Assembly: GCA_031549385.1 (NCBI GenBank)
Contig: JAVBPW010000001.1
Coordinates: forward strand, 224,001-288,000
Reading direction: 5' to 3'
DNA: 64,000 nt
Origin: Alphaproteobacteria bacterium
Lineage (GTDB): Bacteria; Pseudomonadota; Alphaproteobacteria; Rs-D84; SZUA-605
Each line of letters opens with the position of its first letter. Positions within the stretch are counted from its first letter, which is position 1. Below, piece by piece: positions 11,906-57,992 of the stretch. Under the pieces are notes generated by a model. That model was not told the DNA's origin, did not search any database, and saw only the letters and a program-made list of their open reading frames with translations. Made by a program: the position numbers and the translations under genes.

Positions 11906-11981
11906 TGGTGGGTGTTACAGGAATCGAACCTGTGACCCAATGATTAAAAGTCATTTGCTCTACCGGCTGAGCTAAACACCC
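11906..11981 (-). tRNA. tRNA-Lys(UUU)
   Basis: GGGTGTTTAGCTCAG...AATGA-CTTTTAA-TCATT...GGTTCGATTCC...CACCCACCA. Confidence 0.97.
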
Positions 11982-33224: not shown

Positions 33225-34027
33225 GCAACTTTCCTTATTTCGTTTTGGTTATTTCTTTGTAGTAATTCTGACGCTAAGGATATGTATGATTTTGATCCAG
33301 CACAATTTAAATCATATAATAAAACTGGCTTACCATGTGATGGAGCTTCTGTTATTCTTACGTTTCTTGGTATTACTGTTTCAAATACTAAATTCTTAAA
33401 ACATGAACGAACATCACTTTCAACTTGTCCTGAAATACTGTTGCGGTTATCAAACATTGTTAATACCACACCTTCAACTTCTAATGCTGGGTTATATTCG
33501 TGTTTTATTTGAGATATTGTTTTTACTAAGTTATGTATTCCTTCCAATGCAAAGAATTCACATTGTAATGGAATTAAAACTGAATCTGATGCAGATAGCG
33601 CGTTAATTGTTAAAAATGATAAAGCTGGTGGGCAATCAATAAACACATAGTCATATTTATCCTTTATACCTTCCAAAGCTGTTTTTAAACAAAAAGCCGG
33701 CGAAATATGATTTGCTAGCTCATTTTCAGCACGTGCAAGTGAAGTGTTTGATGTTATTATATCTAAATTTGGAATATTTGTTTTTGAAATTGCATAATGA
33801 ACCATGTTTGGATTTATTAACATGTCATACACTGTTACTGTACGAGCTTGAGCTGAAACACCTAATCCTGTAGAAGAATTTCCTTGTGAATCCATATCTA
33901 TAATCAAAACTTTCTTTTGTGTAGATACCAAGGCTGTGGCTAAATTTATTGTTGTTGTTGTTTTACCAACTCCACCTTTTTGATTTGCTACAGAAATTAT
34001 CTTTGCTTTTGTTGATAAAGTACTCAT
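33221..34027 (-). CDS. parA: Chromosome partitioning ATPase
   Basis: NQKGGVGKTTT, DSQGN, IDCPP, QCEFFALEG, IPRNVRITEAPSHG. Confidence 0.97.
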
Positions 34028-34155
34028 TTCTTCCCCTTAACTGATTTTACTCTCGGTCATCATTTTAATAAATAAAAAAGTAAGTGCAAGCACTTTCTTA
34101 GACTTTTTACTTGAACTTTTTCTTTTTTTAATATACATTATCTTCCTGTTAACGT

Positions 34156-34232
34156 GTGCCCTTAGCTCAGCAGGATAGAGCAACAGATTTCTAATCTGTG
34201 GGTCAGGGGTTCGAATCCCTTAGGGCACGCCA
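34156..34232 (+). tRNA. tRNA-Arg(UCU)
   Basis: GTGCCCTTAGCTCAG...ACAGA-TTTCTAA-TCTGT...GGTTCGAATCC...AGGGCACGCCA. Confidence 0.97.
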
Positions 34233-34253
34233 CCAACTTGAAGTTGGACACTT
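34233..34253 (+). repeat. tRNA 3' trailer palindrome
   Basis: CCAACTT-G-AAGTTGG-ACACTT directly after CCA. Confidence 0.9.
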
Positions 34254-34295
34254 TAGTTTTATATAATATAGAACGTAACTTGAATAAAAAATTAT

Positions 34296-34373
34296 GGCGG
34301 GTGTAGCTCAGTTGGTTAGAGCGCCAGTTTGTGGTACTGGATGTCGCCGGTTCGAACCCGGTCACTCGCCCCA
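34296..34373 (+). tRNA. tRNA-His(GUG) with encoded G-1:C73
   Basis: G-GCGGGTG...CCAGT-TTGTGGT-ACTGG...CACTCGC-C-CCA. Confidence 0.97.
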
Positions 34374-34394
34374 TCAACTTGAAGTTGAACACTT
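34374..34394 (+). repeat. tRNA 3' trailer palindrome
   Basis: TCAACTT-G-AAGTTGA-ACACTT directly after CCA. Confidence 0.9.
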
Positions 34395-34448
34395 AATTTT
34401 GGATTTTATCAATTTTATTGATTTTGATTAAAAAAGAAAAGGGATTTT

Positions 34449-36122
34449 TTACTTCCCTTCTACTGATTTTAGCTTTTCTTTTAAATCTTCTTTTTCTATA
34501 TCACTTAAACCTTTATTGAAAAGTTCTGCTACTTCCCATTGATAACGAGCATCTCTGAACTTTCCTTGATCATAATATGCTTCGCCTAAATGAATTCTTA
34601 TTGGAGCGTGAGTTGCATTTCTTGAAACACATAATTCTAATAGTCTTATTGCTTCTTTTTGCTTTCCCATTTTGTATAGAGCCCATGCAAATGAATCTAT
34701 ATAATCAATATCTAATGGATTTGAAATTACTGCTTGTTCTATCATCTTTAAAGCATTATCTTGATTTTTATCATGATCTATCCAGAAATACCCTAAATAG
34801 TTTTGAACAACTGGATTGTTTGGTGAAAGAACTAATGCTGTTGCTAATAAATCTTCTACTTTATCAAACTTGCCTAATTTATCGTTGCATAATGCTAGAT
34901 AATAATAAATCTTCCAGTCTGTTGCTTTTTTATTATCTTTTATCTGTTTCTCGGCTGATGAGAATATTTCTAATGCTTTTTTGTAATTTGCTTGTTCAAT
35001 ATATTTTTCACCTAAATACATATAAGCAGTCATATAAAATGGATATTTAGAAATAATTCTTTTGAATATCTTTATTCCTTTTTCTTTATCCCCAGTTTTA
35101 TAAAGATTGTTTGCATACTTTAATTGTGTTGATGGATAAAGGTATGATGTTTTTGGTATTGATAAATATATTGCATTTGCTTTGTCTATTACATTTCTTG
35201 CTTCCCATACTTCTGCTAATAATACTTTTGAAAACTCATGATCCGGAGTTAAGTATAATGAAAGTTGAGTAAAGAACATTGACAGTTCCCAATTTGCAGG
35301 ATTAAATATTAATAATGCAAAATTAGAAAATGCTTCTGAAAAACCATCATTTACATTAGAAAATATGTTTGAATCCCCTGCTTTGTAATTTTGAATGTAG
35401 GAATTTAAAAGAGATGCCATACTTTCATCTATGATTTTTTCATTTACTACTTTTTGAGCTTCTTCAAATTTTGCTTGTTGGCAATAATATTGAACTAATA
35501 ATTGAGCTGCTCTTATACTTATGTTTTCTTTTTGAAATTTTGGTAAAAGTTCATTTATTGTTTTTTCATCTTTTAAATTAATCGCTAAATAAAGCTTGTT
35601 TTGATTTATTAAAGATGTTAATCCTTTTGAATTAATTTTACCAAGAGCATTATAAGCTGCTGTCTTATTATTTTGACCTGCATAAACCCATGCTGATAAT
35701 AAATGTTTTAAAATTTCTTGTTTTGATTCTTGTACTTTGTTTAAATCTTTTCTTGCTTGATCAAAGTTTCCTTCTTTTACTGACATTGCTACTTTTACAA
35801 AGTTTGCTGTGTTTTCTTTTTCAGGAGCTACTTCTGCTGCTCTTTTGAAATCACCCTCTATGATTGCTAAGATATATTCGCTTTTTTTTATTTCTGGAGA
35901 TGAATCTAGTTTTTCTAATTTATCAAAAAAGTTTGTTGCTGCATCAAAATCTGATGTCTTTTTTGCATATGTGCCTGCTAAATACAATGAATATTCATTT
36001 GGAGTTAGTGGTTTTGATGTTGTTAATGTTTCTCTTAAATCTAGTTTATCTTTTAAAATGATACATATTCCAAATATTAAAATTAGTATCCAGTATAGTT
36101 TATATCTTCTTGTCATTTTCAA
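34449..36122 (-). CDS. Membrane-anchored/periplasmic TPR protein
   Basis: YLAG, TPR helices, PVVQNYLGY.W, YIDS.AWALY, HLGEAY...AR.QW typical of the alphaproteobacterial TPR family. Confidence 0.9.
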   Translation of the reverse strand: MKMTRRYKLYWILILIFGICIILKDKLDLRETLTTSKPLTPNEYSLYLAGTYAKKTSDFDAATNFFDKLEKLDSSPEIKKSEYILAIIEGDFKRAAEVAPEKENTANFVKVAMSVKEGNFDQARKDLNKVQESKQEILKHLLSAWVYAGQNNKTAAYNALGKINSKGLTSLINQNKLYLAINLKDEKTINELLPKFQKENISIRAAQLLVQYYCQQAKFEEAQKVVNEKIIDESMASLLNSYIQNYKAGDSNIFSNVNDGFSEAFSNFALLIFNPANWELSMFFTQLSLYLTPDHEFSKVLLAEVWEARNVIDKANAIYLSIPKTSYLYPSTQLKYANNLYKTGDKEKGIKIFKRIISKYPFYMTAYMYLGEKYIEQANYKKALEIFSSAEKQIKDNKKATDWKIYYYLALCNDKLGKFDKVEDLLATALVLSPNNPVVQNYLGYFWIDHDKNQDNALKMIEQAVISNPLDIDYIDSFAWALYKMGKQKEAIRLLELCVSRNATHAPIRIHLGEAYYDQGKFRDARYQWEVAELFNKGLSDIEKEDLKEKLKSVEGK

Positions 36123-36175
36123 TTCTCCTTGCTAGTATAGCATAAACTAATGTTTTAAAAAAAAGAAGTGAAAAA

Positions 36176-36754
36176 ATGGACGAAAATAAAAAAAATTATC
36201 CTAAACTAGAATTATATTTGAACTTATTGAAAGAATGGAATGAGAAGTTTAATTTAGTTGCTCCTTCTACTATTGATAATGCATGGGAACGCCATTTTAT
36301 TGATAGTTTACAGTTAGAAGATTTATTACCTAATAAAGATGTTCTGATTTATGATTTAGGAGCTGGGGCTGGATTTCCTTCTTTAGTTTTATCTGCTCAA
36401 GGATACAAAAACGTATTTGCTGTAGAAAAACTAGCAAAGAAATGTGAATTTTTAAAAGAAGTTAAAAAACAACTCAATTTGCCTGTGAATATTTTAAATA
36501 CTAATATTTCTGCTTTAAAAATTAATAATAAGCCTATTTTTGTAGCAAGAGCGTTTGCTTCTTTGACTAAGATATTTGAAATAACTAAACCTTTTTTTAG
36601 ATTGAATCCCGAATATGTTTTGTTAAAAGGTGAAAACTGGGAAAGAGAAATTGAAGAAGTTAAACAGTATTTTAACTTTGATTTTAAAACTAAGCCCAGT
36701 ATTACTTCTGAAAAAAGTATGATTTTAATTATTAATAATGTGAGGAAGAAATAA
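36176..36754 (+). CDS. rsmG: 16S rRNA m7G527 methyltransferase
   Basis: WN..FNLV, WERHFIDS, DLGAGAGFP, ARAFA, LKG. Confidence 0.95.
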   Translation: MDENKKNYPKLELYLNLLKEWNEKFNLVAPSTIDNAWERHFIDSLQLEDLLPNKDVLIYDLGAGAGFPSLVLSAQGYKNVFAVEKLAKKCEFLKEVKKQLNLPVNILNTNISALKINNKPIFVARAFASLTKIFEITKPFFRLNPEYVLLKGENWEREIEEVKQYFNFDFKTKPSITSEKSMILIINNVRKK

Positions 36755-37392
36755 TGAAATATGTAGAAGAAATTTGTGAAATATTTAAAGACCTTATTCC
36801 AGAACCTGACAGTGAATTACAATATGACAATGAATGGACCTTTGCTGTTGCTGTTATTTTATCTGCTCAAGCAACCGATAAACGAGTTAATATTATAACT
36901 CAAGACTTGTTTAAAGTTGCTAAAACACCGGATGATTTTATTAAATTAGGTCTGGATGGGTTAATTCCTTATATTAAATCTATTAATTATTTTAATAATA
37001 AAGGAAAAAATATTATTGCAGCTGCTCATATGGTTAAAGATGAATTTGGTGGAAAACTTCCTCATACAAAAGAAGGATTATTAAAAATACCAGGTATTGG
37101 TAATAAAACTGCTGGAGTTATTATTAATCAATTATGGGATGGTGGATGTATTCCTGTTGATACACATGTTTTTAGAGTTGCTCATAGACTTGGCTGGGCT
37201 AGTGATAAAGATAATAATCCAGATAAGGTTTCTGAAACTTTAGATAAAATTATACCTCAAGAATATAAAAATGATATTTCTGATTGGATGGTTTTACATG
37301 GAAGATATACTTGCGTGGCTAAAAATCCTAAGTGTGATATTTGCCCTATTACTCAATATTGCGCTTATTATAAAAAATGTTTTAAGAGTTAA
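36754..37392 (+). CDS. nth: Endonuclease III
   Basis: ILSAQATD..VN, HhH motif LLKIPGIGNKTA, VDTHVFR, C-x6-C-x2-C-x5-C. Confidence 0.97.
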   Translation: MKYVEEICEIFKDLIPEPDSELQYDNEWTFAVAVILSAQATDKRVNIITQDLFKVAKTPDDFIKLGLDGLIPYIKSINYFNNKGKNIIAAAHMVKDEFGGKLPHTKEGLLKIPGIGNKTAGVIINQLWDGGCIPVDTHVFRVAHRLGWASDKDNNPDKVSETLDKIIPQEYKNDISDWMVLHGRYTCVAKNPKCDICPITQYCAYYKKCFKS

Positions 37393-37446
37393 AAAACTTC
37401 TTGATTTTAAATTGTTCGTACATATAATAACTAATGCATCAAAAAT

Positions 37447-37520
37447 TGGGGAATCGTCTAATGGTAGGACATCGGTTTTTGGTACCGCGAATCAGGGTTC
37501 GAATCCTTGCTCCCCAACCA
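37447..37520 (+). tRNA. tRNA-Gln(UUG)
   Basis: TGGGGAATCGTCTAATGGTAGGAC...CGGT-TTTTGGT-ACCG...GGTTCGAATCC...CCCCAACCA. Confidence 0.95.
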
Positions 37521-37540
37521 CCAACTTGAAGTAGACACTT
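37521..37540 (+). repeat. tRNA 3' trailer palindrome (degenerate)
   Basis: CCAACTT-G-AAGTAG-ACACTT directly after CCA. Confidence 0.85.
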
Positions 37541-37548
37541 TAAAAGAT

Positions 37549-37569
37549 AATCCCGTGTGGGATTTTTTT
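37549..37569 (+). terminator. Intrinsic terminator
   Basis: AATCCC-GTGT-GGGATT followed by T-run. Confidence 0.75.
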
Positions 37570-37588
37570 ATTTCCTTAATTTTAAATA

Positions 37589-37604
37589 TGTTTCATGTGA
37601 AACA
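37589..37604. promoter_or_regulatory. parS site
   Basis: TGTTTCATGTGAAACA, one mismatch to the consensus TGTTTCACGTGAAACA. Confidence 0.92.
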
Positions 37605-37687
37605 TTGAGATAAGTTGTTGTAATTGACTCGCATTTTGAATCGGGTCATTTTTATCTGTTTAAATATATCAAAAATGCATTTAAATA

Positions 37688-37703
37688 TGTTTCACGTGAA
37701 ACA
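37688..37703. promoter_or_regulatory. parS site
   Basis: Perfect TGTTTCACGTGAAACA. Confidence 0.95.
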
Positions 37704-37748
37704 TTTGGATAACTTACTGTAAATGACTCGGATTTTTGAAAAAGTCGC

Positions 37749-38501
37749 TTAAAAGTCGTATTTTTTAGGTTTAAATGTAGTTTGAGCTTTTTCTTTACTC
37801 ATAACTTCATCTTTTTCATATAAGGATAAATCTTCTAATACTATTTTACCAAAATAAACTCTCATAACTGGTTTCTTTGGATTACTTAAATCTGATGCCC
37901 AAATTTGTGCTGCACCTTCTGTGTCGACTACATTAGGTTGACCATATTTTTCATAAACTCTTTGAAGGAATGCTCTTAGCTTTTCTTTTCTTTGGTATTC
38001 ATAAGCCTCACCAATACCTTCTACTTTATTGGCGTCGTTTTCATATTTGATTTGATATACTAAATTTTCTGTTTGATTTGAGGTAAAAAATAATTCTATT
38101 TTTTCACCAGTTTTATCATTTTGTAGCTTCATATAGTTTGTATAAACTTGCTTTTCTTTTGATGCCTGTTCTATTGTGCATCTTTTTAATTGCTCTGGAG
38201 TTTTAACTTTGCCCCCTCTTCTGCATTCATAATTATAGTTGTATTCAAAGAATTTTGGATAACGTGTGTCTTCTTTTACTACCTTGTAATCACTCTTACG
38301 AAGAGCTTCTTCTTTGATATATTCATAGGTTGAACCTAATACTATTTCATTGATATCAAAGACTTGAACCATTGCTATATTTGGTGAAATTTCCTTTGTT
38401 GTTGATGATTTAAATAAACCAAAAATTTGTGCTTCTGATTGTGAATGCATAAAAAAAGATACTGCAAATAATGGTAAAATCAACTTCCTCATGTTTTTCA
38501 T
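37749..38501 (-). CDS. Exported hypothetical protein
   Basis: 250-aa ORF with signal peptide. Confidence 0.8.
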   Translation of the reverse strand: MKNMRKLILPLFAVSFFMHSQSEAQIFGLFKSSTTKEISPNIAMVQVFDINEIVLGSTYEYIKEEALRKSDYKVVKEDTRYPKFFEYNYNYECRRGGKVKTPEQLKRCTIEQASKEKQVYTNYMKLQNDKTGEKIELFFTSNQTENLVYQIKYENDANKVEGIGEAYEYQRKEKLRAFLQRVYEKYGQPNVVDTEGAAQIWASDLSNPKKPVMRVYFGKIVLEDLSLYEKDEVMSKEKAQTTFKPKKYDF

Positions 38502-38535
38502 TATAGAAAGCTTTTTATAAAAATAAAGGCTTTTT

Positions 38536-39099
38536 TTATTTTTTGATGTTTTTCAATAAAAAATGGTATGAAGCTGAAACTTGCTTGAACTTTTCTTCTT
38601 TTTCTTTATTTCCACCAGTTATATCTGGATGGTATCTTTTAGATAGTTCTTTGTATTTTTGATTAAGCTCTTTCTTGGTTGTTGGCCAAGAAATGCCTAA
38701 AATCTTTATTGCTGTTATATGTTCTCTTGGCAAATTGTTTAGTGTTGGGTCCCCTTTTGAGTTGCTTGTAAAGTCAAAATTTAGGTTATATTTTTCTAAG
38801 ATTTTAAACGGATCTTCCAAACCTTTTATTTTTTCAAGCACTTTTGGATTAATTCCTACACCCATTTTCCATGTCTTTCGTCGGCCTATTATATCAAAAT
38901 CATTTAACATTCCTATTTCTTTTTCATCCATATCTTTATAAAAATTCCAGTTTTTATTGTATTCTGAAGCATGTTTTTGACAGAAATAATGATAATCATG
39001 TGAATTCTTTTTAGGAGCTTTATGTAAACCCTCTTCTTTACAACCCTCTTGATCACAGGGTCTGAACTCTTTCTTTTCCTCTTTTTTTCTGTAATACAT
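38536..39099 (-). CDS. J-domain protein (C-terminal DnaJ domain, alphaproteobacterial type)
   Basis: C...GC...G.HKAPK, FC..HA.EYNKNWNF, C-terminal YHPD. Confidence 0.92.
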   Translation of the reverse strand: MYYRKKEEKKEFRPCDQEGCKEEGLHKAPKKNSHDYHYFCQKHASEYNKNWNFYKDMDEKEIGMLNDFDIIGRRKTWKMGVGINPKVLEKIKGLEDPFKILEKYNLNFDFTSNSKGDPTLNNLPREHITAIKILGISWPTTKKELNQKYKELSKRYHPDITGGNKEKEEKFKQVSASYHFLLKNIKK

Positions 39100-39980
39100 T
39101 ACTTTTCCTTTTTTGATAATGGATGAAAATTTTGAACTGTTTTTACTAATCTTTCATCCATTATGTGAGTATAAATTTGAGTGGTTGATATATCTTCATG
39201 ACCTAATAACATTTGAACTGAACGTAAATCTGCACCACCTTCTATTAAATGAGATGCAAATGAATGGCGAAAAACGTGTGGAGAAACCTTTAATGGTGAA
39301 ATTCCTGCTGCTAATGCTTGCTTTTTTAACATCTTAAAAAATCCATCTCTGGAAATATAACCCTGTTCTGAGTCACTTGGAAATAGAAAGTTGGATATTT
39401 TACGGCCTTTAGGCAAGAAATTGTTGCGAATTTGTAAATATTTGATTAAGGATTCTTTTGCTTTACTATGAAGTGGTATTATTCTTTCTTTATTACCCTT
39501 CCCTGTTACTGATATTTGATCTTTTTCACCTATGAAGGCTGCCAATGGCAATGATACTAATTCTGAAACTCTTAAACCACAAGCATAAAGTAAATACATC
39601 ATAGCCATCAACCTTATACCATTATTATCATCTGGGGTTTTTAATATTAATTCTAGCTCATCCTGAGTTAAATATTTTGGAAGAGAATTTGTTCTTTTTG
39701 GATTTTCTATTTTTTCCATTGGTGATATTTTTATTTCTTTTTCTTCCATTAAGAATTTATAAAATGTTCTTAAAACTGATAGTTTTCTTGAAAGAGTTTT
39801 TTGACTTAATTCTTGTTCATACAAATATTGTATGTAGTTTTGAATATCTGATTTAGTCGCTTTAGTTATGTCATTTTTATAAAAAGAAATGAAATCCTGT
39901 AAATCCGTTTTATAGGAAAGGATTGTGTTTTTCGAATGCCCCTTTTGAGCAAATAACATTTCTAAGAATCTCTCTTGCAT
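39099..39980 (-). CDS. xerD: Tyrosine recombinase XerD
   Basis: LYACGLRVSEL, GKGNKER, SPHVFRHSFASHL..GADLRSVQMLLGH.DISTTQIYTH. Confidence 0.92.
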   Translation of the reverse strand: MQERFLEMLFAQKGHSKNTILSYKTDLQDFISFYKNDITKATKSDIQNYIQYLYEQELSQKTLSRKLSVLRTFYKFLMEEKEIKISPMEKIENPKRTNSLPKYLTQDELELILKTPDDNNGIRLMAMMYLLYACGLRVSELVSLPLAAFIGEKDQISVTGKGNKERIIPLHSKAKESLIKYLQIRNNFLPKGRKISNFLFPSDSEQGYISRDGFFKMLKKQALAAGISPLKVSPHVFRHSFASHLIEGGADLRSVQMLLGHEDISTTQIYTHIMDERLVKTVQNFHPLSKKEK

Positions 39981-40039
39981 TCTTTAATTATAGTTAATTA
40001 AAGGTGAAATTTCAATGAAACATTGATAATTTTATTTTA

Positions 40040-40071
40040 TAACATATTGTTTTTGGATTCTTATTTGACTC
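40040..40071 (+). repeat. Oriented intergenic module (copy 2, no CCGGC)
   Basis: TAACATATTGTTTTTGGATTCTTATTTGACTC. Confidence 0.75.
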
Positions 40072-40101
40072 TTTAGTTTTAACTTAAATTTACTTAAAAT
40101 A

Positions 40102-40162
40102 CCGGCTTTTGATAAAGTTTTTATATTTTATAAGTGCTTGATCTTTGATTCTTATTTGACTC
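40102..40162 (+). repeat. Oriented intergenic module (copy 3)
   Basis: CCGGCTTTT...TAAGTGCTTGATCTTTGATTCTTATTTGACTC. Confidence 0.85.
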
Positions 40163-40245
40163 TTTTGATATTTTTTATGATTCAATTTGAAGCTTCAAAT
40201 AATTTTAAGTGGTATATTCTTATTGCTTGGTTTATAATTTTTTAC

Positions 40246-41148
40246 ATGAATTTTGATAAATGGATTGTTATTGATAAGCCTTTAGGAATGACTAGTACAC
40301 AAGTACTTGGCAAAGTTAGAAAATTGTTAGGTGTAAAAAAAGTTGGCCATTTGGGTACACTTGATCCTTTAGCTACTGGAGTTTTACCTATTGCACTTGG
40401 AGAGGCTACTAAAACTATACCTTTTATTAATGACCATACAAAAGAATATGAATTTAATATAATATTTGGAATTGAGTCAGAAACACAGGATTTAGAAGGT
40501 ATAAACTTAGAAAATTTACACGATTTTGAATCTGTTAGCGAATCTGCAATAAGAGCTATTTTACCGGCTTTTAATGGAAAAATTACACAAACACCTCCTC
40601 AATATAGTGCTGTTAAGATTAATGGAGTACCTGCTTATAAGCTAGCAAGAGCAGGTGAGGTGGCTGAAATTAAGCCTAGGGAAGTTGAAATTTATAGCTT
40701 AAAATTTTTAGGAATGGTAAAACCTTATGAAGCTTCTTTTAAAGTTGTTTGTTCTACAGGAACTTATGTTAGGTCACTTGCTGTGGATATTTGTAAAAAA
40801 TTAGGAGTTAAAGGTGTTGTTTCTTTAATCCGCCGACTTCAATCTGGAGTGTTTAAAATTGAAGATTCTATTTTACTTGAAAATTTGGAAAAAATTTCTT
40901 ATAATTTGCCGGAATCGCAAAATGATGTCGTTAATGAAATATTTTTATCTTTAAATAAGGTTCTGGCCGACATCCCGGGTCTTGTTTTAAATCAAGATGA
41001 TATTTCATTGCTGCAACATGGGCAATTTGTGAAACACGAATTTGTTCAGGGTCAAGTTAGAATTGTCGATGACAAAAATAATTTGATTGCGATTGCAAAG
41101 AGTGAAGATGGATTTCTTAAACCTTTGCGAATTTTTAACAACAAATAA
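40246..41148 (+). CDS. truB: tRNA pseudouridine 55 synthase
   Basis: IDKPLGMTS, KVGHLGTLDPLATGVL, QTPPQYSAVK, CSTGTYVRSL; ATG 40246 preferred. Confidence 0.97.
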   Translation: MNFDKWIVIDKPLGMTSTQVLGKVRKLLGVKKVGHLGTLDPLATGVLPIALGEATKTIPFINDHTKEYEFNIIFGIESETQDLEGINLENLHDFESVSESAIRAILPAFNGKITQTPPQYSAVKINGVPAYKLARAGEVAEIKPREVEIYSLKFLGMVKPYEASFKVVCSTGTYVRSLAVDICKKLGVKGVVSLIRRLQSGVFKIEDSILLENLEKISYNLPESQNDVVNEIFLSLNKVLADIPGLVLNQDDISLLQHGQFVKHEFVQGQVRIVDDKNNLIAIAKSEDGFLKPLRIFNNK

Positions 41149-41162
41149 AAAGGAGCATCGCG

Positions 41163-41432
41163 ATGTCGATTACTAAAGAAAAAAAAGCTGTTATCATTAA
41201 AGATAATGCTATTAGTGAAAAAGATACTGGATCTGCATTTGTGCAGGTTGCTGTTTTAACTGAACGTATTAATTCTTTAACTGAACATATGAAAGCTAAT
41301 AAAAAAGATTTCAATTGTCGTTTAGGATTAGAAAAGTTAGTTGGAAGACGTAAAAGATTATTAGCTTATTTGAAAGAAAATAATGCTAAGGCTTATGAAG
41401 AATTAATTAAAAAATTAGGACTTCGTAAATAA
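41163..41432 (+). CDS. rpsO: 30S ribosomal protein S15
   Basis: DTGS..VQVA.LTERI..LTEH, GL..LVGRRKRLL.YL, LGLRK. Confidence 0.98.
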   Translation: MSITKEKKAVIIKDNAISEKDTGSAFVQVAVLTERINSLTEHMKANKKDFNCRLGLEKLVGRRKRLLAYLKENNAKAYEELIKKLGLRK

Positions 41433-41440
41433 ATTGGAGG

Positions 41441-41462
41441 AGGGGTGTTTGCACCCCTTTTC
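41441..41462 (+). terminator. rpsO terminator
   Basis: AGGGGTG-TTTG-CACCCCT followed by T-run. Confidence 0.85.
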
Positions 41463-41498
41463 TTGTAATATGGTAAAACATATTATATAATTGTGAAT

Positions 41499-41586
41499 AA
41501 GATAAGGACAATATGTATAAAATAGTTTTTTTATACACAGTTTAAAAAGTTGTGCATAAGTAAGCTATTTATATTTTCCTTGTCTT
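41499..41586 (+). promoter_or_regulatory. Long hairpin in pnp leader (probable RNase III autoregulation site)
   Basis: AAGATAAGGA/TCCTTGTCTT, AAATAGTTT/AAGCTATTT, TTATACACAGTT/AGTTGTGCATAA nested stems. Confidence 0.7.
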
Positions 41587-41620
41587 GAAGTTAACTTAAA
41601 CATTAAAAAGGAAAATAAAA

Positions 41621-43714
41621 ATGTTTGGAAAAAAATCAATGTTCAACGAAACTAAAGTTGAATTTAAATGGAATAACGCAAAAGTTGTTCTGGAAACTGG
41701 AAAATTAGCTAGACAGGCTACTGGCGCTGTTTGGGCTACTATGGGAGAAACTAAAGTTCTTGCGACCGTGGTTGCTGCTAAAAAAGCAACTGAAGGACAA
41801 GACTTCTTCCCACTTACTGTGGATTATGCAGAAAAATATTCTTCTGTTGGAAGATTACCTGGCGGATTTAAAAAGAGAGAAGGGCGACCAAGCGACGACG
41901 AAATTCTTGTTTCTCGTTTGATTGATAGACCTATTAGACCTTTGTTCCCAGAAACATTCTTCAATGAAGTACAATTGCTTACAACTGTTTATGCTTATGA
42001 TGGTGTTAATAGCCCCGATATTTTGGCTTTAATTGCTGCATCTGCTTGTTTGAGTATCTCTGGTGTTCCATTTATGGGACCTATTGGTGCTGTTAGAGTT
42101 GGATATATTAATAATGAATATGTTTTCAATCCTACACCAGAAGCAAGAAAAGAATCTGCTCTTGAATTAGTTGTTGCTGGAACTTCTAATGGAGTTTTGA
42201 TGGTAGAATCTGAAGCAAAACAATTAAATGAAGATATCATGTTAGGTGCTGTTAAAGCTGGATTTGAAAACTTCCAAGTTGTTATTAAAAATATTAATGA
42301 CTTTGCTAAAAAAGCTAAAAAAGAAGCTTGGGAAGTTCCTGCAAGAACTCCTGCTTTTGCTGAAGTTATGAAACTTTTAGAAAAGAAAGCATTACCTGAT
42401 CTTACTAAAGCTTATAAAATTAAAGACAAGTTAGAAAGACAAGATGCTGTTGCTGCTGCTAAAGAAGCTGCTAAAGAAGCTATTGCTGAAAATGAAGAAT
42501 TATTACCTGCATTTGAAACTGCTTTCTTTGAAACAGAATATAAACTTGTTCGTGGAATGGCTTTAAATGATAAAAAGAGAATCGACGGAAGAAAGTTAGA
42601 TGAAGTTAGACCTATTGAATGTGAAGTTGATATTTTACCAACTAATCACGGTTCATCTTTATTTACACGTGGAGAAACTCAATCTCTTGCTACTTTGACT
42701 TTAGCTACAGTAGATGAAGGTCAAATGATTGATGATATTTATGGTATTAGAGATGAAAATTTCTTATTACATTATAACTTCCCAGCTTTCTCTGTTGGAG
42801 AAATTTCAAGAAGAGCATCACTTGGTAGACGTGAACTTGGACATGGAAAATTAGGTTGGAGAGCTCTTCACCCTGTATTGCCATCTCTTGAAGAATTCGG
42901 TTATACTATCAAAATTACTTCTGATATTTTAGAATCTAATGGTTCATCTTCTATGGCTACTGTTTGTGCTGGATGTATGGCTTTAATGGCTGGTGGAGTG
43001 CAAATTAAAGCTCCTGTTGCTGGTATTGCTATGGGTCTTATTAAAGAAGGTAATGACTATGTAGTTCTTTCTGATATCATGGGTGACGAAGATCATCTTG
43101 GAGATATGGACTTTAAAGTGGCTGGATCTAAAGAAGGTATCACATCTTTACAAATGGATATTAAAATTACTTCTATTACTTTTGAAATTATGGAAAAAGC
43201 TTTGAAACAAGCTCGAGATGGACGTATTCATATCTTGGGTGAAATGGCTAAAGCTATTAAGGCACCTAGAAAAGATCTTTCTAAGAATGCTCCTCAAATA
43301 GAAGATATTGAAATTCCTGCTGCTAAAGTTAGAGAAGTTATCGGAAGCGGTGGATCGGTTATTAAGAAAATCCAAGAAGATTTCCAAGTAACTGTTAATA
43401 TCGACGATAAGAATGTTGCACATGTTGCATCTGCTAACCTTGAAAATTTAGAAAAAGCTGTTGCTTTTATTAAAGGTATTTTTGCTGAACCTGAAGTTGG
43501 GCAAATTTATACAGGTGAAGTTGTAAATATCCAAAAGTTCGGTGCATTCGTTAGATTTTTTGGCCAACAAGATGGACTTGTTCATATCTCTGAATTTGGT
43601 ACAAAAGAAAAACGTGTTGATAATATCGAAACAGTTGTAAAACTTGGAGATAAATTAAAGGTTAAATACCTTGGAAAAGAAAAAGGTAAAACTAAATTAC
43701 AATTAGTAAAATAG
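41621..43714 (+). CDS. pnp: Polyribonucleotide nucleotidyltransferase
   Basis: ETGKLARQA, RLIDRPIRPLF, FTRGETQ, ESNGSSSMA, GDMDFKVAG, KH and S1 domains. Confidence 0.98.
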   Translation: MFGKKSMFNETKVEFKWNNAKVVLETGKLARQATGAVWATMGETKVLATVVAAKKATEGQDFFPLTVDYAEKYSSVGRLPGGFKKREGRPSDDEILVSRLIDRPIRPLFPETFFNEVQLLTTVYAYDGVNSPDILALIAASACLSISGVPFMGPIGAVRVGYINNEYVFNPTPEARKESALELVVAGTSNGVLMVESEAKQLNEDIMLGAVKAGFENFQVVIKNINDFAKKAKKEAWEVPARTPAFAEVMKLLEKKALPDLTKAYKIKDKLERQDAVAAAKEAAKEAIAENEELLPAFETAFFETEYKLVRGMALNDKKRIDGRKLDEVRPIECEVDILPTNHGSSLFTRGETQSLATLTLATVDEGQMIDDIYGIRDENFLLHYNFPAFSVGEISRRASLGRRELGHGKLGWRALHPVLPSLEEFGYTIKITSDILESNGSSSMATVCAGCMALMAGGVQIKAPVAGIAMGLIKEGNDYVVLSDIMGDEDHLGDMDFKVAGSKEGITSLQMDIKITSITFEIMEKALKQARDGRIHILGEMAKAIKAPRKDLSKNAPQIEDIEIPAAKVREVIGSGGSVIKKIQEDFQVTVNIDDKNVAHVASANLENLEKAVAFIKGIFAEPEVGQIYTGEVVNIQKFGAFVRFFGQQDGLVHISEFGTKEKRVDNIETVVKLGDKLKVKYLGKEKGKTKLQLVK

Positions 43715-43737
43715 AAAACCAATTTTTAAATAAAAGG

Positions 43738-43785
43738 CCGGCATTTAGCCGGCTTTTTGTTTATTAAACACTTGTTTTTGGATTC
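43738..43785 (+). repeat. Oriented intergenic module (copy 4; includes pnp terminator hairpin)
   Basis: CCGGC-ATTTA-GCCGGCTTTT...TAAACACTTGTTTTTGGATTC. Confidence 0.8.
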
Positions 43786-44026
43786 AATTTTGCTCATAGA
43801 ACAGAACATGTTCCTCTGATTGAGGAGCTGTTAGTTCAACTCTTTGACAAAAGACATCTTCGCCAGATTTGAGAGGAACCCCTTCTTGTGGAAACATGTA
43901 AACAATGTCTCCAGAAATAACTGTTTTTAGCGTTATCCGTGCTTCGGATACGTCTATAATTCTGCACCTTACAGGAGTCTTTATTTCTCCTTTTGATACA
44001 GCTCTTAGAAACTGTTTTCTGGTCAT
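43784..44026 (-). CDS. Small hypothetical protein (80 aa)
   Basis: Higher GC than flanks, own TTGACA promoter, leader shared with 44331-44582. Confidence 0.6.
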   Translation of the reverse strand: MTRKQFLRAVSKGEIKTPVRCRIIDVSEARITLKTVISGDIVYMFPQEGVPLKSGEDVFCQRVELTAPQSEEHVLFYEQN

Positions 44027-44145
44027 TTCTTTTATATGTTTTTAGGTTTAAAATTTAAAAGTTCTTTTGGTTTTAATATATATTGAATCTAATGTCAAAA
44101 GAATTATTGATTTTATTAACATTTATTTATATATTCTTCTTACGC

Positions 44146-44220
44146 GTCCCTATCGTCTAGCGGTTAGGACAGAGGGTTCTCAATCCTCCAACACGGGTTC
44201 GAATCCCGTTAGGGATGCCA
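44146..44220 (+). tRNA. tRNA-Glu(CUC)
   Basis: GTCCCTATCGTCTAGCGGTTAGGAC...GAGGG-TTCTCAA-TCCTC...GGTTCGAATCC...TAGGGATGCCA. Confidence 0.96.
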
Positions 44221-44241
44221 GCAACTTGAAGTTGCACACTT
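44221..44241 (+). repeat. tRNA 3' trailer palindrome
   Basis: GCAACTT-G-AAGTTGC-ACACTT directly after CCA. Confidence 0.9.
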
Positions 44242-44274
44242 TATTAGGGGTTATAGCTTGTGTTAATGTTATAA

Positions 44275-44308
44275 AAAAAGAGTCTGATTTTTCAATCAAA
44301 CTCTTTTT
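44275..44308. terminator. Bidirectional terminator-like hairpin
   Basis: AAAAAGAGT.TGATT...AATCA.ACTCTTTTT. Confidence 0.65.
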
Positions 44309-44330
44309 ATAAAATAACTGGAAATTTGTT

Positions 44331-44582
44331 TTAACCATCTATGACAAATTCAATGAAGAACCAAATGCTGCCGAGGAATATAAGTCCGCCAAAAATAACA
44401 AGAATAACAGTTATAATAAGTGGAACTTCTGGAATAAAGAAACCTGCGCATACTATCAATATACCTATAGCAAAAATACAAAGGGTTATTAAGGTGTGTA
44501 ATATCGTAAATAAACACCCTCCGCCCTTTTCATCACCTCCATAATGTACAGGAGGTATTACAGTTGGAACAATGATTACCAT
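44331..44582 (-). CDS. Small two-TM membrane protein
   Basis: Two hydrophobic helices, TTGACA-N17-TATATA promoter. Confidence 0.65.
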   Translation of the reverse strand: MVIIVPTVIPPVHYGGDEKGGGCLFTILHTLITLCIFAIGILIVCAGFFIPEVPLIITVILVIFGGLIFLGSIWFFIEFVIDG

Positions 44583-57904: not shown

Positions 57905-57981
<77 letters not shown>

Positions 57982-57992
57982 CTTAATTTTCA

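Follow-up and report, generated by a model that had tools for sequence, protein, structure and literature searches.

We analyzed a 64,000-nucleotide stretch of DNA (the window) from an alphaproteobacterium (assembly GCA_031549385.1, contig JAVBPW010000001.1, positions 224,001 to 288,000 of the forward strand), in which a short palindrome is fused to the 3' ends of four tRNA genes. We found that these four trailers belong to a family of 17 hairpin elements in the 0.93-Mb genome, each approximately 25-30 nt long. Six members are at tRNA-type CCA ends, one is at the end of tmRNA, nine are at protein stop codons, and one is inside a gene in antisense orientation. The finding is real and broader than tRNAs. 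As a short interspersed palindromic repeat, the element is of a known kind; its single-base precision at gene ends and its strict strand rule are unusual. We give an even chance to the notion that the four trailers are copies of a genome-specific, miniature palindromic DNA element resembling repetitive extragenic palindromes (REPs).

tRNA trailers and the genome-wide family

ARAGORN predicted seven tRNAs in the window, and Rfam matched only the same seven there. In four of them (Arg-TCT, His, Gln-UUG and Glu-CUC), a sequence of the form N-CAACTTGAAGTTG-N'-ACACTT directly abuts the CCA, with no spacer. The initial annotation had described these trailers, and both ARAGORN and our own reading confirmed them. 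Behind the CCA, the Arg trailer reads C-CAACTTGAAGTTG-G-ACACTTTAG. The His trailer holds the same core between T and A, followed by ACACTTAA, and the Glu trailer holds it between G and C, followed by ACACTTTA. The Gln trailer is a degenerate copy, C-CAACTTGAAGTAG-ACACTTTA, that is shorter than the others by one base. On the + strand, the window has three exact matches to the 13-mer CAACTTGAAGTTG. With up to two mismatches there were 14 matches, compared to 3.09 +/- 1.86 in shuffled sequences, and none of 100 shuffles gave 14.

The assembly that we searched for further members comprises 931,143 bp in 8 contigs, has 30% G+C and is rated 97% complete (positions outside the window are given by contig, C1, C2 and so on). 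A genome-wide search for copies away from tRNAs had been set beforehand as a test of the tRNA association. The tRNA copies stood, but 11/17 members lie elsewhere. Of the 37 predicted tRNAs, 35 end in CCA. Reading the trailers of all 35, as had been proposed, we found the motif directly on five (the four in the window and tRNA-Arg(CCT), C7:160959). The sixth tRNA copy (C7:22038; stem AAAC/GTTT) is in a tRNA-Phe locus made of tandem units, each closing with a copy of the tRNA 3' end, and it follows the last of these displaced ends.

Protein genes carry most of the remaining copies. At rpoD (C5:5265) the exact 13-mer is at the stop codon, with the G of TAG serving as the first base of the stem. 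A profile built from six copies found four more: at dnaJ (C7:9273) and topA (C7:55495), where the TAG stop also ends on the first stem base (ORF, or open reading frame, ends were checked), at tRNA-Phe, and in a U5-methyltransferase gene (C4:13411), which holds the antisense copy. Others have different stems: TAA-CCAGG TTGAA CCTGG AGAC at bamA, GGAC CTGAC GTCC ACGC at carD and at a 96-aa ORF, and CCAC CTGAC GTGG ACAC at the end of tmRNA, where the alpha-tmRNA model extends to L004:1667 and overlaps the first bases of the hairpin, which begins at 1665/1666. A scan with a relaxed tail added a fucosyltransferase gene (AAAAT TTGAA GTTTT ATAC), and a BLAST of the genome against itself added rpsU and rlpA (TA-G GAAC CTGAC GTTC C ATCGC). 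Host protein genes were named by Pfam and are housekeeping genes.

We found that the position of the element is precise. Measured from the CCA or stop, 16/17 copies start at offset 0 or -1, where the functional part of a gene ends, and 16/17 copies are sense to their host gene. The stop codon ends on the first stem base at rpoD, dnaJ, topA, carD, rpsU and rlpA, and finishes just before the stem at bamA and the 96-aa ORF. TAG is the stop at 6/9 protein-gene copies versus 125/761 long ORFs, and its G pairs with C across the stem. Apart from this shared base, 16/17 copies are outside coding sequence and one is inside. Borders are sharp and the flanks of the copies are unrelated.

The family is also specific in its sequence. 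A scan for arm, YTGAM, arm and A[CG]R[CT]TT gave 14 hits in the genome and none when the genome was reversed. In the same scan, five control loops were tried and four gave no hits; the fifth, [AC]TGA[CT], gave 7 and overlaps the real CTGAC loop. Eight of the 12 CTGAC-loop hairpins in the genome are family members. A search with the 3' arm and tail found no longer relatives of the element.

Hairpin structure and transcript context

In each member, a 4-6-bp stem of variable but paired sequence closes a YTGAM loop. The palindrome thus formed spans 13-15 nt, and behind it comes the tail A(C/G)RC-TTWA, which often continues as GTTTT. The core is as originally quoted, but the conserved unit runs further 3', through this tail. 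In an alignment of 15 of the 17 copies, the TGA of the loop and the TT of the tail are invariant. There are two subfamilies, one with TTGAA loops and ACAC, the other with CTGAC loops and ACGC. The same loop and tail are combined with the stems GGAC/GTCC, GGAAC/GTTCC, CCAGG/CCTGG, CCAC/GTGG and AAAC/GTTT.

We found that the two sides of the stem covary. Across a five-pair helix in the 15 aligned copies, 93% of cells are standard pairs, and all five pairs have changes on both sides. None of 500 shuffles matched this, and alignments slid out of register were 16-44% paired. The count is partly circular, as 5 of the 15 aligned members came from a scan that demanded pairing. In a check blind to pairing, 77 sequences matched the loop and tail, and 14 of them had all four inner pairs. 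The initial annotation had pointed to compensatory changes in the outer pair of the tRNA copies and to a larger set as the place to check them. Covariation of the hairpin is real, persists in the larger set and is stronger across the family, but the outer pair itself is C.C in the Arg-CCT copy and is lost in the degenerate Gln copy, which keeps three of four inner pairs (one stem mismatch, outer partner missing). In the Arg-TCT copy, a further T-A pair, if formed, would give a 6-bp stem and a TGA loop. A weak hairpin is indicated by the folding energies (-3.4 to -6.3 kcal/mol) and their z-scores (-0.7 to -2.3). We rejected a pseudoknot between loop and tail: loop base 1 (U/C) and tail base 3 (A/G) associate in 15/17 copies, but this is an isolated pair, and subfamily ancestry is the simpler explanation. 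Covariation alone does not decide between DNA and RNA, because it would look no different if it arose from a hairpin in single-stranded DNA or from template switching at a quasi-palindrome.

Covariation does bear on a double-stranded DNA dyad bound by a dimeric protein, which might act as a roadblock, an operator or, as first suggested, a guard of an integration site. The core CAAC-N5-GTTG is such a dyad and contains a -35-like TTGAAG. However, the stems become unrelated in sequence and stay complementary, which a sequence-reading protein would not permit and a dyad does not explain. The asymmetric tail in fixed orientation and the location downstream of genes also argue against a dyad, and we consider it very improbable.

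By our reading, a separate, canonical terminator-like hairpin follows approximately 10/16 gene-end copies within ~100 nt. The element would therefore be inside the transcript and would not itself be the main terminator. The separate terminators reported after the Gln and Glu copies were both seen (Table 1). The one after the Gln copy contains G+C; the one after the Glu copy has few G-C pairs, was for that reason not listed by the terminator scan, and looks like a terminator shared with the convergent gene.

It is unlikely, in our estimate, that the element is an atypical, weak intrinsic terminator or pause site, in which a 4-nt spacer lies between a short A+U-rich hairpin and an interrupted U-tract. 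Like intrinsic terminators, it is a hairpin followed by U-rich sequence (TTTAGTTTT) at gene ends. No other terminator was seen after the rpoD, dnaJ, bamA, tRNA-Arg(TCT) and distal tRNA-Phe copies, the rpoD genes of relatives have an ordinary terminator at the corresponding place, and a loose terminator scan rated the Glu copy, the sole one of the four window copies to pass, as weakly terminator-like. In contrast to terminators, the stem is A+U-rich and weak by the energies and z-scores above, a conserved 4-nt spacer (ACRC) parts it from the U-tract, the conserved loop and tail are not needed for intrinsic termination, and separate terminators are usual. A weak terminator also leaves the strand rule (below) unexplained. 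The earlier judgment that the trailers are not ordinary terminators agrees with the weak fold and the separate terminators, but the "no U-tail" part of it is only partly true, as the tail is U-rich.

Trailers that lack the motif often begin with CTT. In the window, tRNA-Lys (site at 11903-11897, - strand) and tRNA-Met (57905; site at 57982-57988) read CCA-CTT, and tRNA-Val reads CCA-TCTT. Genome-wide, CCA-CTT[T/A] is found at 6/30 motif-less CCA-ending tRNAs, and at 5/18 in the sister genus. This is strongly over-represented relative to base composition, from which we estimate ~0.4/30, and it may be the normal 3'-processing site of this bacterial family. C-T-T-W also follows the ACR of every copy. 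Judged by sequence, it looks as if the element were set between the terminal A and the trailer start CTTW, with its own A-C-R end restoring A-C↓U-U-W. These results fit the suggestion that CCA-CTT represents an "empty site". A general tRNA 3'-processing signal, also suggested, is unlikely: the motif is on 6/35 tRNAs, on 0/18 tRNA trailers of the sister genus (the only other genus of the family), and on 0/29 tRNA-His trailers of relatives.

The tail resembles a site for RNase E. In the parts of PMC5222698 that we used, the RNase E consensus is given as RN↓WUU, and the enzyme cuts near tRNA 3' ends, with enrichment around stop codons, in Salmonella. The tail is R-[C/T]-T-T in 15/15 aligned copies, with U at +2 and T or A at +3, and fits the RN↓WU of this consensus. 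It would be single-stranded, A+U-rich and behind a stem, at tRNA trailers and stop codons, as in the sites described there. The match is by sequence only, however; the motif is short and common, and it leaves the conserved hairpin loop unexplained. The genome encodes RNase E/G and rho.

These features make a function in RNA a serious rival to mobile DNA; the two are compatible, not exclusive. The element could be a selected 3'-end processing or "punctuation" module that marks the exact ends of tRNAs, tmRNA and mRNAs. RNase E would cut the ACRC↓UUWA tail, or an RNase P- or Z-like activity would cut the foot of the hairpin; the downstream terminator would be removed and transcript stability set. 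We regard this as possible but doubtful. The flush position and sense orientation (16/17 each), the loop and tail conserved while stems covary, the RNase E-like tails together with an encoded RNase E/G (PMC5222698, as used above), the A-C-U-U-W start of motif-less trailers here and in the sister genus, the terminators downstream of the copies, which place the element within transcripts, and the housekeeping hosts are all consistent with such a module. It is harder to reconcile with the absence of the element from relatives with the same tRNAs and genes (the sister genus and 60 genomes), with its presence on only 6/35 tRNAs, or with the other strand, where 0/18 tRNAs and 0/372 ORFs carry it. 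An intact copy lies antisense within a coding sequence, a hairpin on the CCA would be expected to impede exonucleolytic trimming, and there is no Rfam match. We checked the window and eight copy-bearing loci against Rfam 15; only tRNA and tmRNA models matched.

A more specific version seems improbable to us. In it, the hairpin is a minihelix like an acceptor stem (stem plus 3' A-C-R-C), and an endonuclease cuts at its 5' foot to produce mature CCA, tmRNA and mRNA ends. Alternatively, the element would join RNA molecules at their 3' ends before being copied back into DNA, and its flush fit with the CCA and the stop-codon A would follow from this. Mitochondria have tRNA punctuation and t-elements, which we propose as an analogue of a hairpin mark at gene ends, and the host organism is presumably a free-living relative of the mitochondrial ancestor.

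Some copies are part of a mosaic. As REPs are in bacterial interspersed mosaic elements (BIMEs), hairpin copies are linked with other sequences, here a shared terminator and a second repeat; the second repeat is directly behind three hairpin members, at tmRNA, rpsU and rlpA.

This second repeat is itself a family of at least 13 copies, ~65 nt long with the core TTATTAAAAACAGGGTTTTTAACAATTTAACAAGTTTAATAATAA, in C7:99947-192808 (e.g., 125024-125116, 157479-157545 and 160854-160882). Its full copies are all on the + strand, it contains -35/-10-like hexamers, and one copy ends just before tRNA-Arg(CCT).

Table 1. Features of the window that bear on the four trailers (positions counted from the first nucleotide of the window)
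Feature	Position	Strand	Evidence
tRNA-Lys(TTT), "empty-type" site CCA-CTTTTAAAAAAA, then terminator	11906-11981	-	ARAGORN; reading
tRNA-Arg(TCT), host of copy 1	34156-34232	+	ARAGORN; Rfam tRNA, 68.7 bits
Copy 1: stem C-CAAC / GTTG-G (34233-34247), loop TTGAA	34233-34260	+	reading; fold, -5.8 kcal/mol; pattern scan
Copy 1 tail, ACAC-TTTA-GTTTT	34248-34260	+	reading
Promoter-like TTGAAG-18 nt-TATAAT, -35-like part inside copy 1	34238-34267	+	10/12 matches
tRNA-His(GTG), host of copy 2	34297-34373	+	ARAGORN; Rfam
Copy 2: stem T-CAAC / GTTG-A, loop TTGAA, tail ACAC-TTAA-TTTT	34374-34400	+	centroid, -4.1 kcal/mol; pattern scan
tRNA-Gln(TTG), host of copy 3	37447-37520	+	ARAGORN; Rfam
Copy 3, degenerate: CCAAC TTGAA GTAG ACAC TTTA	37521-37542	+	reading; fold; pairing count
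Intrinsic-terminator-like hairpin AATCCCGTGTGGGATT, then T-run, 6 nt after copy 3	37549-37571	+	reading; terminator scan
tRNA-Glu(CTC), host of copy 4	44146-44220	+	ARAGORN; Rfam
Copy 4: stem G-CAAC / GTTG-C, loop TTGAA, tail ACAC-TTTA	44221-44243	+	fold, -6.3 kcal/mol
Inverted repeat GAGTCTGAT...ATCAAACTC, then TTTTT, ~37 nt after copy 4	44281-44309	+	by eye
tRNA-Met(CAT), "empty-type" site CCA-CTTAATTTTC	57905-57981	+	ARAGORN; reading

The promoter-like site in copy 1 is ~30 nt upstream of tRNA-His, with a perfect TATAAT. The pairing of -35 and -10 is local to this copy; read by eye, the others have no comparable -10 hexamer. We rejected a promoter for the downstream gene as the role of the element, as a good -35/-10 pair is completed by the Arg-TCT copy only.

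Two side observations concern the tRNAs and the assembly. At C2:66626-66797 (L129:1627-1797, - strand), two adjoining tRNA-like genes, with Rfam scores of 54.7 and 44.5 bits, differ from the other 35 tRNAs in that CCA is not encoded. The anticodon of one is CTA, which would read the TAG stop, and the anticodon loop of the other is odd. The pair may represent suppressor tRNAs of phage origin. The contig ends C1:1-215 and C5:91781-91934 are paralogous, with a hairpin-family copy, TTTTGAATTATAAAAAA, a terminator and a convergent gene end, and this shared repeat probably broke the assembly.

Strand distribution and occurrence in other genomes

We found that all 17 copies follow a strand rule: within each contig they are on one strand. 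Roughly half of the genes and tRNAs are on the opposite strand. On C7, 12/12 copies are on the + strand, yet the - strand has 203/385 long ORFs and 11/21 tRNAs. The element is on 6/17 tRNAs of the copy strand versus 0/18 of the other (P = 0.008), and on 0/372 ORFs of the other strand. The intragenic copy is antisense to its gene, yet it obeys the same rule. We split the skews at third codon positions into a gene-strand part and a remainder. In 4/4 copy-bearing contigs, the copy strand is T-rich and at least weakly G-rich at these positions. The strand rule points to a DNA-level, strand-asymmetric process. This matches the single-strand transposition of IS608: as described in the parts of PMC5027513 that we used, it is strand-biased and targets the lagging-strand template and highly transcribed genes.

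By third-position skews, the + strand of C7 looks like the leading strand throughout. We do not claim a link to replication, however, because rplB and the majority of ORFs in part of C7 are on the - strand (below), dnaA is on another contig (C5, 75.6 kb), and clusters of DnaA boxes are scattered; neither dnaA nor these clusters fixed the direction of replication. We rejected Ter-like sites of a replication terminus, with which the flush fusion to genes is at odds; plain GC skew of C7 also gave no sign of a terminus close to the copies.

The genome is compositionally uneven. A GC skew at third positions (GC3) of the replication type, ~0.3-0.4, is found in C7:270-455 kb, C2, C6 and the first 60 kb of C4, and is only ~0.05-0.1 in C7:0-210 kb and C5; it does not change sign within C7, and there are two compositional compartments. 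The S10 operon (with rplB, C7:75 kb) is on the compositionally "lagging" strand. Four DnaA-box-like 9-mers, two of them perfect, lie at C7:445255-445700, near the right end of C7.

We found the element in this genome only. In addition to the motif-less tRNA trailers of relatives noted above, 0/22 readable rpoD ends of relatives carried it, with one further locus cut by a contig end. The loop-and-tail pattern occurred 11 times on the forward and 0 times on the reverse strand of this genome (control, 0/2). In 60 genomes of the same order it occurred at most six times per strand each, like the controls in those genomes, with no enrichment. Exact matches to the motif in three relatives were in unrelated contexts only. 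When three public collections were scanned with CAACYTGAMGTTGNACRCTT, the matches were single and scattered: 21 in genomes, 33 in metagenomes and 3 in viruses. Of the genome and metagenome matches, 0/54 followed a CCA; two of the three viral matches are contigs also found in the metagenome scan. In the searchable literature, four core 13-mers matched one unrelated primer only. Contigs from one DNA and two RNA sequencing runs of a single study, compared with positions 33900-44500 of the window, did not span the trailers. An alignment of the methyltransferase copy with four relatives showed only a variable loop longer by two residues, and it indicates neither an insertion nor its absence.

Four tyrosine recombinases are encoded in the genome, and none adjoins a copy in the window (nearest, ~39.1-40.0 kb). 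That the copies are att-site scars, left by integrative elements whose tyrosine integrases use gene 3' ends, seems to us barely credible. The encoded recombinases are consistent with scars, as are the tandem tRNA-Phe units that end in copies of the tRNA 3' end, with the motif after the last. That motif, however, behaves as an old chromosomal flank outside the inserted units. No tRNA 3' end is duplicated at the four window copies, where no integrase adjoins, and in the flanks of all 16 sites other than tRNA-Phe we saw no duplicated gene 3' end by eye, no repeat search having been made there. Decayed islands would hardly leave an exact 25-nt remnant at each of 17 sites, and copies are also at protein genes. 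The nearest recombinase (293 aa, 39099-39980, - strand) lies between the Gln and Glu copies; it has a Phage_integrase domain and is Xer-like by size, and we saw no link to the element. We also rejected a selfish cassette with a GIY-YIG nuclease: the only GIY-YIG domain is in a 605-aa ORF that appears to be UvrC-like, and the 10 ORFs around the window copies have no Pfam nuclease family.

Known systems and proposed origin

In its build, the element is closest to group 3 REPs. As described in the parts of PMC8266576 that we used, REPs consist of a small perfect palindrome next to a conserved tetranucleotide, with critical loop bases and cleavage at CT/CA; those of group 3 are small perfect palindromes, such as the Marinomonas REPMb, with a 5-bp stem and a 4-nt loop, 2 nt from GTAG. 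By comparison with these partial descriptions of REPs and REPtrons, our element likewise has a short palindrome beside a conserved tetranucleotide, some invariant loop positions, stems that diverge yet pair, extragenic positions at gene ends and mosaics with other short repeats, and it can be read as a single-strand hairpin. It failed the defining REP tests (GTAG, tnpA-REP, copy number and inverted pairs). ACRC is 3' of the hairpin (GYGT 5' on the complement) in place of GTAG, there is no match to tnpA-REP, there are 17 copies and not hundreds, all copies have one orientation without inverted pairs of the BIME type, and they start exactly on the last base of a gene.

Two other systems are less similar. 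IS200/IS605-type elements and their non-autonomous derivatives are also hairpin-based, with strict orientation to one DNA strand and a preference for highly transcribed genes, and IS608 inserts in rrn genes (PMC5027513, in the parts used). In contrast, here we found no Y1 transposase, one hairpin and not two, and no fixed 4-5-nt target on the 5' side. In this family the active strand is on the lagging-strand template; here, 17/17 copies are on the strand that is G/T-rich at third codon positions, but the other strand holds rplB and the majority of ORFs in C7:0-270 kb. Rickettsia palindromic elements (RPEs) are likewise lineage-specific palindromic repeats of a reduced alphaproteobacterial genome and can sit in genes, according to the portions of PMC10969869 that we used. 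Unlike our ~25-nt element, with 1/17 copies in a gene, RPEs are described there as ~150 bp long, in frame and encoding a peptide segment.

Sharp borders, high identity of copies, lineage restriction, the strand rule, the intragenic copy and the mosaic structure fit recent multiplication of the element in this lineage. The idea that the trailers are the footprint of a mobile element is the one we favor, but the element is not targeted to tRNAs, as the nine stop-codon copies, the tmRNA copy and the intragenic copy indicate. We propose that it would have multiplied by a strand-asymmetric copy-and-paste of a single-strand hairpin, inserting behind the terminal A and ahead of CTTWA, with which trailers usually start. 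Its ...AC(R) end would restore the local A-C↓UUW context behind the insert. Transcribed with the host gene, it would form a weak stem-loop followed by a single-stranded, RNase E-like site. Because this site matches RN↓WUU, 3' maturation of the host gene would still work and the insert would be tolerated. Pairing of the stem would be kept because the hairpin itself, in single-stranded DNA or RNA, is recognized, and template switching at the quasi-palindrome may add to its complementarity.

Several results weigh against a REP-like mobile element. There are only 17 copies, and GTAG, inverted REP pairs and target-site duplications are all absent. Insertion is deduced and not directly seen. The 5' flanks share only the final A (16/17), with no evident DNA target motif. 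Read as REPs are, with the tetranucleotide on the 5' side, the element would have its active strand opposite to the one assigned as sense. A search for the Y1/RAYT transposase (tnpA-REP, PF01797) gave 0 matches in the genome and, as a control, found it in 6/14 reference genomes. The domains rve and DDE_Tnp_1 and a reverse transcriptase were likewise not found in this 97%-complete genome. The initial annotation had also raised a likeness of the core to the inner part of some IS3-family inverted repeats; for that family, the observation here is the lack of any rve-type transposase match. On a link to replication the data conflict: third-position skews make the + strand of C7 look leading, but the - strand carries rplB (C7:75 kb) and, by bin counts, 135/225 ORFs in C7:0-270 kb. 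The flush position, the sense orientation (16/17), the conserved loop and tail, and the housekeeping hosts fit a selected RNA function as well.

The spread and role of REP-like repeats are still poorly understood, and this family is a small, clean case with nucleotide-exact borders. In annotation, trailers of this kind should be read neither as terminators nor as signals specific to tRNAs. If mobile, the element would be a minimal one with single-base precision for gene ends. If it is a selected RNA module, it would be an end-mark common to tRNAs, tmRNA and housekeeping mRNAs.

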